The notes: generated by a model not told the origin, from the sequence alone. 64,000 nt of DNA from Alphaproteobacteria bacterium (GCA_017935485.1 JAGBHO010000023.1:7952-71951); one strand, 5' to 3'; numbered from the stretch's first letter, positions 27,887 to 64,000 are shown. Translations and numbers: made by a program.

Positions 27887-28849
27887 ATGGTAAAAATCAA
27901 TGACGTCAAATTTTCGGACATTTACATTACGCCGGATCGGATTGCGTTCATTCCGGACGGGCAGACCAAAAACGGCCTGACAATTTTGGATGCCGAAGAT
28001 TTTGACATTTTTTATAAACGGCTGGAAGAAAAATGGGACGGCCATAATCCGTCTTATTCCCTGCTTTATGAGAATATTTTTTACCGTGTTGAGCGAACCG
28101 AAAGCCTGTACGGCACACAATACTGCGCCCGTAAAATGCCGGAGAAAGTCCCGCCTTTCGGGAGCTTGGGTTTTCCGCATGAATTAACCAAGTTCCTGCT
28201 GTCATTGTCAAACGCTTCCGGATTGATTCTGTGGTCAGGCCCGACCGGCGCCGGCAAAACTACGGCCATTTCTTCACTGCTGAAAGAATTTCTGGCAATT
28301 GAAGGCGGCTTTGCTTATACCATTGAAGACCCGACCGAAATGCCTCTGGACGGGATTTACAAATCCACCAAAGGCGGCTTGGGCTTGTGCAAGCAGACAC
28401 AGCCGCAGAATGATGACTGGGGGGCTTCGTTAAAATCGGCATTGCGCTCAAAACCAAACTATATTCTGGTAGGAGAAATCAGAACGCCCGATACCGCCAG
28501 CGAGGTCTTGCGCGCCGCCACTTCCGGCCACTTGGTGCTTTCGACCATTCACGCCAATAACATTACCGATGCAATTTATTCCGTCGTCAAATACGCGGCC
28601 TCTACGTCAATGAGCGAAGAGTTGGCCTATGACTTGTTCTCCCGCGGCATTATCGGCGTATTGCATCAGGGATTAATGGGCACGAGCGTAAAAAAACCGG
28701 TGGCAACCTACCTCTTTGCCAACCCGAACTCCTCCCACGGCGATCAGGTGCGCGGCATTATCAAAAGCGGCAAATTAAACCTTGGCACGTCCATTGAAAC
28801 CCAGATGACCCGCCTTGCCCGCGGCATGAGCCTGTTTCAGGAATATTAA
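27887..28849 (+). CDS. PilT/DotB-like hexameric secretion ATPase
   Basis: Walker A GPTGAGKTT, Asp box TIEDPTE, Walker B and His box ILVGEIRTPDTASEVLRAATSGHLVLSTIHAN. The N-terminal ~100 aa are unlike any N-domain I recognise. Confidence 0.8.
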   Translation: MVKINDVKFSDIYITPDRIAFIPDGQTKNGLTILDAEDFDIFYKRLEEKWDGHNPSYSLLYENIFYRVERTESLYGTQYCARKMPEKVPPFGSLGFPHELTKFLLSLSNASGLILWSGPTGAGKTTAISSLLKEFLAIEGGFAYTIEDPTEMPLDGIYKSTKGGLGLCKQTQPQNDDWGASLKSALRSKPNYILVGEIRTPDTASEVLRAATSGHLVLSTIHANNITDAIYSVVKYAASTSMSEELAYDLFSRGIIGVLHQGLMGTSVKKPVATYLFANPNSSHGDQVRGIIKSGKLNLGTSIETQMTRLARGMSLFQEY

Positions 28850-28860
28850 AAGGCAGAAAA

Positions 28861-29508
28861 ATGGCTTTTATTTTTATGGATGAAAGTGGCGATTTAGGTT
28901 TTGATTTTAGTAAAGCTAAAACAAGTCAATACTTTGTTATGGCATTTTTAATTTCGGAAAATGAGCGCTGTTTAAATAAAATTGTTGCACAAACATTCAA
29001 ATCAATCAATAAAAAAGAACGCGCAACACATAGCGGATTCTTACATTGTAACAAAGAAAAAGAAGGTGTAAGGCTAAAGTTATTACAGCTTTTGCAAGAC
29101 CAACAAACAATCTCAATAATCATCATTAAACTGAATAAAAAACGTATCTTCACGCGGTTAAATAATGAAAAGCAGGCTTTGTACAATTATGTTTGTAATA
29201 TCTTGTTAGATAGATTAATTAATAAAAATATCCTGCCTCCGGAAGAGGCTGTGACATTTATTGCTTCTCGTCGCGAAACAAATAAATTTATGAATGAACA
29301 ATTCAAAAATTATATAAAAGAAAATATTCAGAGCAACCATAATTTACCAATAAAAGTAGATGTAAAAACTCCGCAGAGCAGTAAAGGATTGCAGGTTGTT
29401 GATTTTATATCTTGGTCGGTGTTCCGTTATTATGAATATCAGGATAACTGCTATTATGATATGATAAAAAAACTGATAGTAGAAGATTATTCGCTTTACG
29501 GCATATAA
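28861..29508 (+). CDS. DUF3800-family protein
   Basis: N-terminal MAFIFMDESGD and C-terminal GLQVVDFISWSVF match the DUF3800 signature blocks. The gene is visibly much more AT-rich than its neighbours. Confidence 0.7.
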   Translation: MAFIFMDESGDLGFDFSKAKTSQYFVMAFLISENERCLNKIVAQTFKSINKKERATHSGFLHCNKEKEGVRLKLLQLLQDQQTISIIIIKLNKKRIFTRLNNEKQALYNYVCNILLDRLINKNILPPEEAVTFIASRRETNKFMNEQFKNYIKENIQSNHNLPIKVDVKTPQSSKGLQVVDFISWSVFRYYEYQDNCYYDMIKKLIVEDYSLYGI

Positions 29509-29660
29509 AAAGCGAAGAACCCTGCTTGCACTTTAGGTTTTAACCTTGAGGAACCATCCGGAACCCCACAATCAGGGAAATTACCTTCGCATAAATATTA
29601 TATAGCATATAAATAGCAGAAATGCAACCTGTTTTATAGCATAAATCCTATATAAGTATT

Positions 29661-62900: not shown

Positions 62901-63059
62901 GATGGTAAATATAAAGGCAGGTTGAACCCGGAGGGCAAAGTTGTCGATGCCAAAGGGGAAATAATCGGCTATCTGAAGAATAACGGCTCCTTTATAGACT
63001 TGGATAAAAAGGTTGCCGGCTATGCTTTGCCGGAAGTCGCTAAAAACCGGAGGAATTAA
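59946..63059 (+). CDS. Bitopic 1037-aa protein: N-terminal TM helix, Ig-like module, then dozens of ~17-residue DGxVxDxxGxxIGxV repeats
   Basis: Its ATG overlaps the virB9 TGA (ATGA at 59946-59949). TM helix IILIVGVTSLLIFLFGISLLLL. Repeats such as PDGTVVDKDGNVVGRAD / NDGSVVDKDGKVLGKVM run to the C-terminus. No TrbI/VirB10 domain is seen. Confidence 0.7.
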   Translation: MSDEQLTNSEVYVKKTNRIILIVGVTSLLIFLFGISLLLLSGGEVEETSMNFENTDDGINIDRKDGLSTNIEIGGIIEGEVPLTLTPDPVPLGQVIIGSNARNVLTLGTNGHASVKIISVNLADPPADGFSFANGCGGMILKGDETCHIQISWVPVVPGNVQNNFIITWVEVGLGDENAKAAKVPVTGSAIRKEDCNFCDSGTGGRDSVINKTDVVTRYAVGPNGDVIGTIDEDGYVRDTEGNVIGRVNAQGMVVDNNGNIIGVAENRKLVVDENGNVIGFANNDGSVVDKDGKVLGKVMPDGTVLDESGNIIGREAEYGFVYDKDGKVIGRVTADGTVEDMEGRIIGRLNSYGDVVDSNGRIIGYITRPGRVALDDEGNAIGVVMPDGTVVDKDGNVVGRADNNGVITTKDGKVIGRLLVEGYIPITPQGRILGNLTNSGVIENQSRQPVGRVGANLLVRDMSGAEVVAEMVRGGLVVGFGCKQLGFLDKDGKIIKNNDEQDLKVLPSGIVLNKDGTYAGEVTKTGKVFDNACVLVGEAGNDGIVKDSNNQYVGCVNPDGTVLDEKGNLVGGVLKQGTAVDYDGKYLGRVGADGLVVNDAGLPVGCVGMYGDIFNKDGGYVGKVLGRQYAFDLNGNFLNVVDQKAEVNMRGQQPLKLSANNLVLNDKNEIVGIAADVRTSFSDKSGDYLGSIFADGKVYNTEGVSLGKINGDGLSFYNQILGTPVRIGQIVGFDGKVIGRSNYDGRVQNRFGDVLGNIDAKGNFIGSKGEYLGAVIRGGAAIGYDGAYLGYVLPDGRVVSLEGKETGRVSSDGKILNKSNAVIGEAVPENILIDIWGGYRGRMTSVGDVLDLKSNTLTAILPGGATDKNLSLLKRGAVIDFSGALLGSVMPNGNVIDNNNVVIGRVLSDGNVISQAGKLIGEVVEGDIVIGNTDNVVGFVEFDGRIRGKDGRIAGRSLSGGLAVDSADNILGKIYKIGATILGNDGKYKGRLNPEGKVVDAKGEIIGYLKNNGSFIDLDKKVAGYALPEVAKNRRN

Positions 63060-63062
63060 AAA

Positions 63063-64000
63063 GTGACGACGTTTGAAAACATAATTTTGCGGTTCTTCCG
63101 TCAGGTTCAAAAAGCGGTTTTTGCTGCCGCCTTGTTTTTTTGTATGTTGCAGCCTGCCGCGGCGGAAGAAATCAGCGCAATAGACTTCAACGGCGATCTT
63201 ATAGGCAAGGTTATTCCGAACGGCAGCGTTGTCGGCTTGGATAATCAGCTGATTGGTAACGTGACGGCCGACAGCCTTATTGTAAATTTTGACGGCAAGT
63301 TGATTGGCGGCGTTGTTCCGCAGGGCGTTGCGGTCGGAAATGATACCAAACTGCTGGGAAAAGTCAGCAATGACGGTTCTGTCCGCCTTGCTTCCGGCAA
63401 AATCGTCGGCAAAACCCTGCCAAACGGTCTGGTTATTGACGATTCCTATAACATTATCGGTGCCGTGCTCTTTCCGGGGCTGATTTACTCCGATACCGGA
63501 AAGACAATAGGGCGTTTTACCGGAGACGGCAGCTTTACCACGCTGGACGGACAACGGGTCGGCTTTGTTTCGCCTTCCGGCGATGCTTACCGCAAAGCGG
63601 TCAACGATTATATTTTGTCCGGCCGGCTGATATCTTCCAAAATGGTTGTTTCTCCGAACGGGACTTTTATCGGCAGTGTTGCCCCCGGCGGCGAAGTTTC
63701 GGACTTTGATGGCAAAATCATCGGCAGCATTCGCGCCGGCGGTTTTGTGTATAACGATAAAAACGAGATTATCGGCCGGATCGTCCGTACCGGTTATGCT
63801 TTTGACAATCGCGGCAAATATCTGGGCTTTGTGTCTTATAACGGAGAAGTCTTGAATGGCGAAAAAGTTGTCGGCCGCCTGCGCGCCGACGGAGCAATTG
63901 CCGATGATAAAAATAATGCTGTCGGCTATATGCTTGACTTTGCGGCCACCGCGTCTGATTTGAAAGGACAGTACCTCGGCCGCCTGATGCCGGAGGGCTT
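63063..64000 (+). CDS. Second repeat protein of the same DGxVxDxxGxxIGxV type; 3' end outside the window (not in the ORF track)
   Basis: Manual translation from GTG 63063 (SD ggagga at 63049-63054) runs with no stop to 64000: VTTFENIILRFFRQVQKAVFAAALFFCMLQPAAAEEISAIDFNGDLIGKVIPNGSVVGLDNQLIGNV... It has a signal peptide followed by the same repeat. Confidence 0.7.
   Translation, partial: MTTFENIILRFFRQVQKAVFAAALFFCMLQPAAAEEISAIDFNGDLIGKVIPNGSVVGLDNQLIGNVTADSLIVNFDGKLIGGVVPQGVAVGNDTKLLGKVSNDGSVRLASGKIVGKTLPNGLVIDDSYNIIGAVLFPGLIYSDTGKTIGRFTGDGSFTTLDGQRVGFVSPSGDAYRKAVNDYILSGRLISSKMVVSPNGTFIGSVAPGGEVSDFDGKIIGSIRAGGFVYNDKNEIIGRIVRTGYAFDNRGKYLGFVSYNGEVLNGEKVVGRLRADGAIADDKNNAVGYMLDFAATASDLKGQYLGRLMPEG

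Follow-up and report, generated by a model that had tools for sequence, protein, structure and literature searches.

A type IVb pilus linked to a paralog-expanded VirB-type secretion system at a conserved chromosomal locus of uncultured gut Alphaproteobacteria

A 64,000-nucleotide stretch from an Alphaproteobacteria bacterium (GCA_017935485.1, JAGBHO010000023.1:7952-71951; hereafter 'the window') carries, from position 27887 to its end, genes for a type IVb pilus and for a VirB-type type IV secretion system (T4SS). The original prediction described this region as a combined pilus and atypical VirB machine lacking visible DNA-transfer genes. Gene content was taken from a six-frame map of open reading frames (ORFs) and from Pfam and NCBIfam scans of 27887-64000. 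Sequence beyond the window end was read from contigs found by exact-protein look-ups, one of which (L001) is identical to the window's last 60 bases. Labels of this kind (L001, L010, L036 etc.) denote the metagenomic and metagenome-assembled genome (MAG) contigs that were compared, and unlabelled coordinates are those of the window. Positions 27887-64000 are the first ~36 kb of a ~60-kb chromosomal locus made up of two divergently transcribed modules. These are a minus-strand pilus operon (42769 down to 29661) and a plus-strand T4SS, whose starts lie 160 bp apart.

By its domains and their arrangement, the pilus module is assigned to the R64/PilL-S type of type IVb pilus (Table 1). TcpQ, Secretin, PAP_PilO, T2SSE, T2SSF and PilS/Bundlin domains are present in the gene order of the R64/IncI-type core. 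The full assembly set that had been predicted was indeed matched: pilin-like genes, T2SSF, T2SSE, a PilP-domain protein (profile score just under the cut-off), PilO, a secretin and a TcpQ/PilL-like lipoprotein. The E. coli plasmid gene that corresponds to the assembly ATPase is, in our reading, the IncI pilQ. At 563 aa, the PilP-domain protein is about four times as long as the PilP-family model, which has 119 positions. A 105-nt tandem repeat of 3.5 copies (36663-37029) encodes its GIVPKTG(A/E)AP units and is followed by a long, charged, coiled-coil-like stretch. Among the three pilin-like genes, only the middle one (30853-31452) has a canonical prepilin leader, and a strong hairpin terminator (30832-30800) stands just downstream of it. 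PilU peptidase, PilT transglycosylase and PilV with its shufflon were not seen in the locus, in which no Peptidase_A24, SLT or recombinase domain was found.

A PilT-family ATPase precedes the pilin genes on the opposite strand. Its best NCBIfam match is to pilT_fam, albeit below the curated cut-off, in keeping with the predicted PilT/DotB-like ATPase; other NCBIfam scores include DotB (E 5.9e-16) and VirB11 (E 7.4e-14). It is distinct from the VirB11 of the same locus (30% identity over 138 aa) and is 92% conserved in one of two more distant species (L037; the other is L036). Between this gene and the pilin genes lies a DUF3800 gene (28861-29508), which is probably an unrelated insertion because it is absent from the corresponding position in both L036 and L037.

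Two non-coding gaps of ~570 bp (30288-30852 and 32171-32757) lie among the pilin genes. They hold short palindromic units, TTTTTCGTCACCCTCGGGCTT and AAGCCCGAGAATGACAAAGAA, that occur nowhere else in the window, and they also contain a 47-nt tandem repeat at 32577-32670. Pilin genes 2 and 3 are flanked by a pair of 84-nt inverted repeats (30697-80 and 32400-83, 82% complementary). The repeat units could be elements resembling miniature inverted-repeat transposable elements or repetitive extragenic palindromes, or they could delimit a segment capable of inversion; the neighbourhood contains no recombinase gene.

The second module is, by its profile and blastp matches, a P-type T4SS of the VirB/MPF_T lineage. 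Amplification of VirB2, which had been predicted, is borne out by three TrbC/VirB2 genes at 42951-44471, and the predicted duplication of VirB8 by two separate genes. Five consecutive proteins with Sec signals occupy the VirB5/VirB6 position and are candidate pilus-tip or adhesin paralogs. None of the five matched a family in Pfam at E<=10 (PF07996 included), in NCBIfam or in a PDB profile search. When they were aligned by hhalign with a verified VirB5, just the signal peptide and a mature N-terminal motif, 'IPVFD..T..Q', could be matched. A single-sequence AlphaFold2 model of a VirB5-position protein reached a predicted local distance difference test (pLDDT) score of 46.7, and the 235-aa protein is predicted to be all-helical in a low-confidence model. 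No repeats were detected in the 1399-aa protein.

The isolated C-terminus of VirB9 scored 20.2 bits against the SPOR model, whose cut-off is 21. Its AlphaFold2 model (pLDDT 33.6) has a beta-alpha-beta-beta-alpha-beta pattern that is compatible with SPOR but is not evidence for it, and the C-terminal extension may therefore be a SPOR domain. Residues 14-168 of the 1037-aa protein that follows match the N-terminus of VirB10 from Microvirga (E 1.8e-4; window 59946-60450 against L026 28105-28575). Because this protein has a VirB10-like N-terminus, VirB10 may have undergone a split or a duplication, after which beta-flower repeats enlarged both halves. Many such repeats occur in both the 1037-aa protein and VirB10, and the giant VirB10 itself starts with a signal-like sequence.

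Table 1. Genes of the pilus and T4SS modules in the window, with the matches on which their assignments rest.
Feature	Coordinates	Strand	Evidence
PilT-family (retraction-type) ATPase, 320 aa	27887..28849	+	Pfam T2SSE E 2.2e-29; NCBIfam best pilT_fam E 1.6e-32, below curated cut-off
Pilin-like paralog 1, PilS/Bundlin fold, degenerate prepilin leader	29661..30287	-	PilS E 1.3e-13, Bundlin E 3.1e-11; N-terminus without Gly(-1) site; 28-36% identical to orthologs
Probable major type IVb prepilin	30853..31452	-	PilS E 3.2e-14, Bundlin E 1.3e-11, weak TcpA; leader ...SG/RSMVEMLGVLAIIG
Pilin-like paralog 3	31610..32170	-	Weak Bundlin/PilS (E 1e-3); C-terminal half common to the other two pilins
PilR-type inner-membrane platform (T2SSF)	32758..33882	-	T2SSF E 1.3e-24, two stretches; 78-87% conserved
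PilQ-type assembly ATPase (T2SSE)	33901..35577	-	T2SSE E 1.4e-68; 36% identical to corresponding ATPase gene of E. coli plasmids
PilP-domain protein, 563 aa, GIVPKTG tandem repeats and coiled-coil region	35587..37278	-	TIGR03021 pilP_fam E 1.5e-7, 32.5 bits (cut-off 34.65)
PilO pilin accessory protein	37253..38527	-	PAP_PilO E 1.8e-14 across whole model
PilN-type secretin	38551..40173	-	Secretin E 1.9e-14; N-terminal lipobox-like signal
PilL/TcpQ-like lipoprotein	40154..40873	-	TcpQ E 2.3e-15
First pilus-operon gene, 612-aa membrane-anchored protein without family	40931..42769	-	No Pfam, NCBIfam or PDB match; position conserved, 38-45% identity
VirB2 paralog a	42951..43337	+	TrbC E 5.6e-10; blastp Microvirga VirB2 E 9e-13
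VirB2 paralog b	43376..43792	+	TrbC E 3.3e-6, 27.6 bits (cut-off 27.9); blastp Microvirga VirB2 E 4e-17
VirB2 paralog c, ends at G tract	43815..44471	+	TrbC E 5.9e-8
Extension ORF, S/G/N/T-rich, three internal repeats	44419..45564	+	Frame arithmetic and gene calls; hairpin terminator 45594-45626
VirB3	45715..46005	+	blastp annotated Microvirga VirB3 E 3e-13; 38% and 35% identical in L028 and L035
VirB4 ATPase, 811 aa	45995..48430	+	TIGR00929 E 9e-106; PF03135; TrwK (PDB 7o41) E 3.9e-42
Five consecutive Sec-signal proteins (99, 476, 235, 381, 1399 aa), VirB5/VirB6 position	48508..56324	+	Signal peptides, common N-termini
VirB8 paralog a, divergent copy	56335..57096	+	VirB8 E 5.2e-12; PDB matches weak only
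VirB7-like lipoprotein, 62 aa	57288..57476	+	Lipobox MLSGC; blastp E 5e-9 to 58-aa ORF in Microvirga VirB7 position, E 6e-8 to L035
VirB8 paralog b, canonical copy	57491..58234	+	VirB8 E 3.8e-21; Bartonella VirB8 4mei E 4e-9
VirB9, 566 aa, C-terminal extension	58249..59949	+	CagX E 2e-11; Microvirga VirB9 E 5e-53
1037-aa inner-membrane-anchored beta-flower protein	59946..63059	+	Bflower_2 E 7.6e-54, six stretches
Giant VirB10, 1542 aa (5' part in window)	63063..64000, ends ~3.7 kb past window	+	11 Bflower_2 (PF21785) stretches, then TrbI at residues 1213-1404, E 1.3e-35

VirB10, VirB11 and VirB6, all of which had been reported as absent, proved to be present once the locus was followed past the window end. 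The 1542-aa VirB10 begins at 63063 and is cut by the window edge. Its best PDB match is ComB10 of H. pylori (E 8.4e-21), ahead of TraF of pKM101 (4e-8) and a weak match to CagY. VirB11 comes directly after it (TIGR02788 E 4.6e-43, below the equivalog cut-off). Four tandem polytopic VirB6 paralogs lie 13-24 kb past the window end. One of them carries a Peptidase_M23 domain (E 4.3e-28) fused to a TrbL/VirB6 domain (TrbL E 6.9e-8), and the other three are linked to it by blastp (E 4e-32 to 1.6e-8) and by the same transmembrane spacing. No VirB1/SLT domain, for which the M23 domain is a plausible substitute, was found in the locus. The earlier list of missing parts was thus an artefact of the window edge, because the VirB10 ORF runs off the end, VirB11 and VirB6 lie beyond it, and VirB3 and the VirB7-like lipoprotein lie inside. 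The machine, described earlier as atypical and without VirB1, VirB6, VirB10 and VirB11, is essentially complete apart from VirD4 and a canonical VirB1, with candidate proteins in the VirB5 position. It is unusual by multiplication and not by loss: three VirB2, five VirB5-position proteins, four VirB6, two VirB8, and a 1542-aa VirB10 accompanied by the 1037-aa protein.

Several further genes stand among these components. An 86-aa ORF without a family match follows VirB11 (L010 11206-11466), where VirD4 would be expected. Past this small ORF, the opposite strand encodes proteins of 263, 418 (a lipoprotein), 210 and 1148 aa and then a double helix-turn-helix (HTH) regulator. The latter (L010 18542-19522), a 326-aa protein with two XRE-type HTH domains, is encoded after the orphan genes and ahead of the VirB6 array. 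It is conserved at 94-99%, shows weak similarity to families that include TrbA and Wolbachia Wmk, and is a likely regulator of the locus. The last two genes before the rRNA operon (L013 666-1511) encode a 281-aa protein with a weak alpha/beta-hydrolase signal and a 149-175-aa lipoprotein. Both are 86-97% conserved across species, and many cluster entries are shortened to 141-149 aa. Searches of PDB, Pfam and NCBIfam gave no significant match for the 263-, 418-, 210-, 1148-, 281-, 175- and 612-aa proteins. The non-secretory 1148-aa and 210-aa proteins are candidate T4SS substrates.

Pfam searches of every ORF in the ~60-kb locus returned no relaxase, type IV coupling protein (T4CP) or integrase, and the absence claimed for the block in the original prediction therefore holds across the whole locus. 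No relaxase, T4CP, integrase or att site was found in ~28 kb upstream (to dnaA) or ~24 kb downstream (to the 16S rRNA gene). In addition, tblastn with MobA and VirD4 of Microvirga gave nothing in the 614 kb of DNA compared (for MobA, no match below E 0.01).

The flanks are chromosomal in character. On the upstream side, ABC-transporter genes abut the locus, and dnaA, dnaN and recF lie at 5365-9519, ~20 kb away. On the downstream side, the contigs stop at nearly the same point, to within a few hundred bases, in many samples and in at least six species. The longest overhang opens with the reverse complement of the universal 16S rRNA 5' end (L030 1-20, ~88 kb in window-equivalent coordinates), which was recognised by eye from the universal 5' primer site; Rfam searches of the contig ends gave no match and reported no 16S fragment. 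Because the longest overhang begins in this way, an rRNA operon is taken to bound the locus, and the ABC-transporter/dnaA flank and the 16S boundary together make it ~60 kb long and chromosomal. An ordinary integrative and conjugative element immediately downstream had been named beforehand as the outcome that would speak against a contact apparatus; what bounds the locus is instead housekeeping genes and 16S. Such an element or a plasmid was considered and rejected, since the walk to 16S downstream and dnaA upstream yielded no relaxase, T4CP or integrase. Neither a plasmid replicon nor variable presence was seen; every diverged species sampled has the locus, in syntenic order.

One of the VirB2 genes carries the homopolymer switch that had been predicted for a pilin. 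A G10 homopolymer (44459-44468) lies at the end of the third VirB2 gene, and with one G fewer this gene is joined in frame to the extension ORF. The G10 form, with split genes, occurs in the window and in L019, L023 and L025. The G9 form occurs in L020, L021 and L022, where a single gene of 582-590 aa is called. The strains compared at the tract all share an identical VirB4 protein. The split form yields a 218-aa VirB2c, to which the G9 form adds an extension of ~365 aa. Contig L023 breaks exactly at the G tract, and the extension ORF is absent from the more distant species L036 and L037. On these comparisons, the G9/G10 tract is judged to be a real switch between a short and an extended form of one VirB2 paralog, which would make the pilin phase-variable.

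The locus is widespread among close relatives. VirB11 has more than 1500 relatives at E<=1e-10, the best 120 of which are all at least 89% identical and some of which are on contigs of about 1.9 Mb (1.88-1.95 Mb); one VirB11 sequence cluster occurs on at least 1000 contigs. The PilL-like lipoprotein has 841 homologs in metagenomes (54-99% identity). The downstream region is shared by GTDB species representatives that are uncultured Alphaproteobacteria catalogued from the gut of humans (UHGG, Hadza) and mice, which agrees with the host-associated alphaproteobacterium that had been predicted. The divergent pilus/T4SS layout is the same in species whose PilL is 68% and 56% identical, which supports the view that the pilus and the T4SS have been kept together as a unit while the species of this gut MAG clade diverged.

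Conservation within this unit is uneven. Across two other species the motors are well kept (VirB4 93% and 81%, PilQ 91% and 78%, PilR 87% and 78%). The exposed parts are less so, with pilins 28-62% and VirB2 44-67% identical, and with VirB5-position proteins at 54-60% in one species and at 29-32% or undetected in the other. VirB2 is present in two copies in other species and in three here. Between species that differ much more in their VirB6 paralogs (62-72% identity) and their 1148-aa protein (~60%), VirB11 is almost invariant, at 99-100% identity. This is the pattern to be expected of a functional machine whose exposed parts would be under diversifying pressure.

More distant relatives bear on the origin of the T4SS. 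The closest VirB4 in the plasmid collection is that of pMVF16-3 from Microvirga sp. VF16 (38.6% identical), which is followed by matches on plasmids of Erythrobacter, Sphingosinicella and Candidatus Paracaedimonas acanthamoebae. Between pMVF16-3 and the locus, VirB11 is 40.6% and VirB9 35.7% identical, VirB9 is similarly long and a VirB7 ORF matches. The plasmid system differs in having single-copy components, a 590-aa VirB10, a MobA/MobL relaxase and VirD4, laid out as MobA, VirB2-B11, VirD4, with no paralog expansion and no pilus genes in the 42-kb stretch around the match. In a library of 1.84 billion cluster representatives, identity to this VirB4 rises above 40% in only a handful of proteins, and those named are from unclassified alphaproteobacterial MAGs. 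In VirB4 relatives at 49% (L028/L029) and 40% (L035), T4SS genes occur in small groups among housekeeping genes. One relative has VirB3-VirB4 with VirB11 3 kb away, and the other has VirB3-B4-B7-B8-B9. Their neighbours include genes for PNPase, LptFG, a Mur ligase, Lon, HisRS and RF-1, with ankyrin-repeat and SPOR-domain proteins nearby. This scattered layout resembles the 'archipelago' of the Rickettsiales rvh system (PMC2653234).

Some features of the surrounding sequence may be recorded here. G+C content is ~0.41-0.47 in the housekeeping part of the window (1-24 kb) and ~0.45-0.52 in most of the pilus/T4SS part, a mild compositional distinctness. A sign change in GC skew tracks gene orientation near 42-43 kb. 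Genes for tRNA-Ser and tRNA-Arg lie near the window start (2680-2939). In GCA_017480965.1, whose DnaA is identical, an integrase gene (Arm-DNA-bind_3 and Phage_integrase), an HTH_17 gene and then an ankyrin-repeat protein gene lie at the equivalent site, beyond an outer-membrane protein beta-barrel gene (L007 16797-20565). This stretch looks like a strain-variable island, as L008 lacks these genes and has others in their place.

Two chromosomal T4SSs invite comparison. The Trw system of Bartonella is a chromosomal, conjugation-derived machine without a coupling protein, in which trwL (VirB2) and trwJ (VirB5) are tandemly amplified, diverge faster and vary in copy number between species (PMC2883598). 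The parallel with Trw that the original prediction drew is well founded: the present locus also has no coupling protein, and its exposed VirB2 and VirB5-position parts are amplified and fast-diverging, with one of them phase-variable (PMC2883598). Trw is a close copy of the R388 locus, whereas here VirB4 matches R388 TrwK at E 3.9e-42, colinearity is lacking, VirB6 is displaced and there are extra genes. Also unlike Trw, the locus has multiplied VirB6 and VirB8, a giant VirB10, a linked type IVb pilus and a phase-variable VirB2. The habitat is gut here and blood for Bartonella.

The rvh system is a vertically inherited chromosomal P-type T4SS with components that show affinity to the epsilon-proteobacterial ComB (PMC2653234). 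Its hallmarks are a duplicated VirB8, multicopy VirB6, duplicated VirB4 and VirB9, RvhD4 and no VirB5 analog (PMC11077975). Shared with rvh are a duplicated VirB8 on either side of VirB7 (here in the order VirB8a-VirB7-VirB8b-VirB9-...-VirB10-VirB11), large VirB6 paralogs in tandem (here four) and an affinity to ComB (here ComB10 as best PDB match of VirB10). Unlike rvh, the locus has one VirB4 and one VirB9, no D4 after VirB11 and a linked type IVb pilus, and its five VirB5-position proteins are candidates for an analog that rvh lacks; RvhB8 of R. typhi is not among the PDB matches of either VirB8.

Type IVb pili paired with conjugative T4SSs have precedents in R64/IncI plasmids and PAPI-1. 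With R64/IncI2 the locus shares a PilL-PilN-PilO-PilQ-PilR-PilS set, with a borderline PilP, next to a T4SS; in the plasmid systems pilus and T4SS act together in cell-cell contact. Those systems are plasmid-borne, with relaxase and T4CP, a PilV adhesin with shufflon, a PilU peptidase and a T4SS that is not of this VirB lineage; to our knowledge their pili have no retraction ATPase. The present system is unlike them in being chromosomal, with PilU and PilV not seen, and in having a PilT-like ATPase and a VirB-type T4SS without a transfer module. In IncI2 plasmid TP114, a PilL-V type IVb pilus aids conjugation in the gut (PMC9045228).

The Helicobacter systems share other traits. Like CagY, VirB10 is giant, with a long repeat region ahead of its C-terminal VirB10 domain, and as in ComB there is no coupling protein. 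The locus differs in having beta-flower rather than CagY repeats, no Cag-specific components detected and an alphaproteobacterial lineage, and it differs from ComB in having VirB11. The beta-flower fold (PF21785), first described in 2023 and placed among Tubby-like domains, still lacks an assigned function (PMC10584680). Literature searches on RF32, Rs-D84 and uncultured gut Alphaproteobacteria with T4SSs or pili yielded no description of this system. Hence the earlier suggestion that the combination is undescribed stands in part: the pairing of type IVb pilus and T4SS has plasmid precedents (PMC9045228), but no description of this chromosomal version was found. What appears to be new is a chromosomal, paralog-expanded version without T4CP, with a phase-variable, extended VirB2 and a beta-flower VirB10, in an abundant uncultured gut clade.

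Because no DNA-transfer genes were found in the locus, its most likely function is cell contact or delivery, not conjugation. We give about even chances to a more specific version, in which a domesticated conjugation-derived T4SS, comparable to Trw and rvh, works with a probably retractile type IVb pilus in cell contact. Retraction is suggested by the PilT-like ATPase nearby, and co-regulation of the two modules by their shared 160-bp divergent control region and conserved linkage. The pilus would attach to a partner surface, be it host mucosa, a protist or another bacterium, and retract, drawing the cells together. The T4SS would next display variant, phase-variable pilus or adhesin structures for close-range adhesion. 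It may also hand over substrates with no coupling protein of its own, in the manner of Bartonella Trw, Brucella VirB and Bordetella Ptl. A bolder version, which we regard as rather doubtful, would make the locus the signature organelle of a whole gut clade that lives attached to another cell. Here the retractile pilus would reel in the partner and the coupling-protein-independent T4SS would dock and exchange material. Docking would be mediated by the beta-flower arrays of VirB10 and the 1037-aa protein (Tubby-like and possibly lipid-binding), and the phase-variable VirB2 extensions would evade immunity or phage. On this version the locus would be an independent T4SS domestication outside the Rickettsiales, with rvh-style paralog expansion physically coupled to a pilus.

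Several observations weigh against a contact device built from a domesticated T4SS and a retractile pilus. The negative result for T4CP and relaxase covers the locus and its flanks, out of a ~1.9-Mb genome, and no effector was identified in the locus. The PilT-like ATPase scores far below its family cut-off and is not at that position in one species (L036), and no prepilin peptidase was found in the locus (no Peptidase_A24 domain). The possible homology of the five Sec-signal proteins to VirB5 comes down to their N-terminal motif. Finally, sequencing errors in the homopolymer could in principle account for some of the differences between G9 and G10 assemblies.

Other explanations account for parts of the same evidence. 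A T4SS for contact-dependent interbacterial killing, as in the X-T4SS of Xanthomonadales, would suit a gut habitat with its competitors. It would also give a role to the M23 peptidoglycan peptidase fused to a VirB6 paralog, to the large 1148-aa protein with neither family nor signal peptide, and to the weakly alpha/beta-hydrolase-like 281-aa protein; killing of congeners has been proposed for rvh of basal free-living Rickettsiales (PMC11077975). The M23 domain is, however, more simply a VirB1 substitute, and the locus yielded neither a T4CP nor a recognisable toxin domain or immunity pair. Known killing T4SSs require VirD4, and their effectors bear XVIPCD-type signals and come with immunity genes, which makes this function unlikely. 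We also consider it quite unlikely that the locus is a working conjugation system whose relaxase, coupling protein and oriT reside on a plasmid or in another part of the genome, its pilus stabilising mating pairs like the R64/IncI thin pilus. The PilL-S family of its pilus genes is typical of IncI plasmids, the plasmid T4SSs closest to it are conjugative, TP114 transfers in the gut with the aid of a type IVb pilus (PMC9045228), and the search for relaxase and T4CP was confined to locus and flanks. Yet neither these genes nor an integrase or att site turned up in the ~28 kb upstream or ~24 kb downstream, and the expansion of VirB2, VirB6 and VirB8 is not found in the conjugative relative pMVF16-3. 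Its fixed place by oriC and an rRNA operon, its conservation across diverged species and the apparently strong purifying selection on its motors are likewise unlike a mobile element.

DNA uptake in the manner of Helicobacter ComB, with the retractile pilus capturing DNA, would explain why the VirB10 C-terminal domain matches ComB10 better than TraF of pKM101 (E 8.4e-21 vs 4e-8), why a PilT-like ATPase is present and why the locus has no T4CP. ComB is not known to contain VirB11 or VirB5-position proteins, whereas this locus encodes an extremely conserved VirB11. Surface parts that are amplified, evolve fast and are phase-variable would not be expected of a competence system, ComEC and DprA genes are not visible in the locus, and rvh components resemble ComB without being competence systems (PMC2653234). 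A competence function is therefore very unlikely. It is hardly credible that the locus is a decaying, non-functional remnant of an integrated conjugative element, even though the DNA-transfer module is absent from it, one VirB2 gene is split by G10 in this strain and two of the three pilins have degenerate leaders. The large ORFs are all intact, synteny and sequence are kept across species (VirB4 81-93%, VirB11 99-100%), and hundreds of near-identical copies occur in independent metagenomes. The split of VirB2c would be reversible, as sister strains carry G9.

A domesticated, contact-making T4SS with its own pilus would be of interest on several counts. It would be the third independent paralog-expanded chromosomal organelle to arise from a conjugation machine, after Trw and rvh. 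Its unusual additions are the genetically coupled type IVb pilus, the slipped-strand switch on a VirB2 pilin and the beta-flower arrays on VirB10. The beta-flower fold would thereby gain its first defined cellular context (PMC10584680). The clade itself is common in human and mouse gut metagenomes, and no cultured representative or known lifestyle was found for it. Its pilins and VirB2 variants offer handles for fluorescence in situ hybridisation, antibodies and enrichment. A large, conserved and fast-evolving contact apparatus near the replication origin is the strongest available clue that these bacteria may depend on attachment to another cell.

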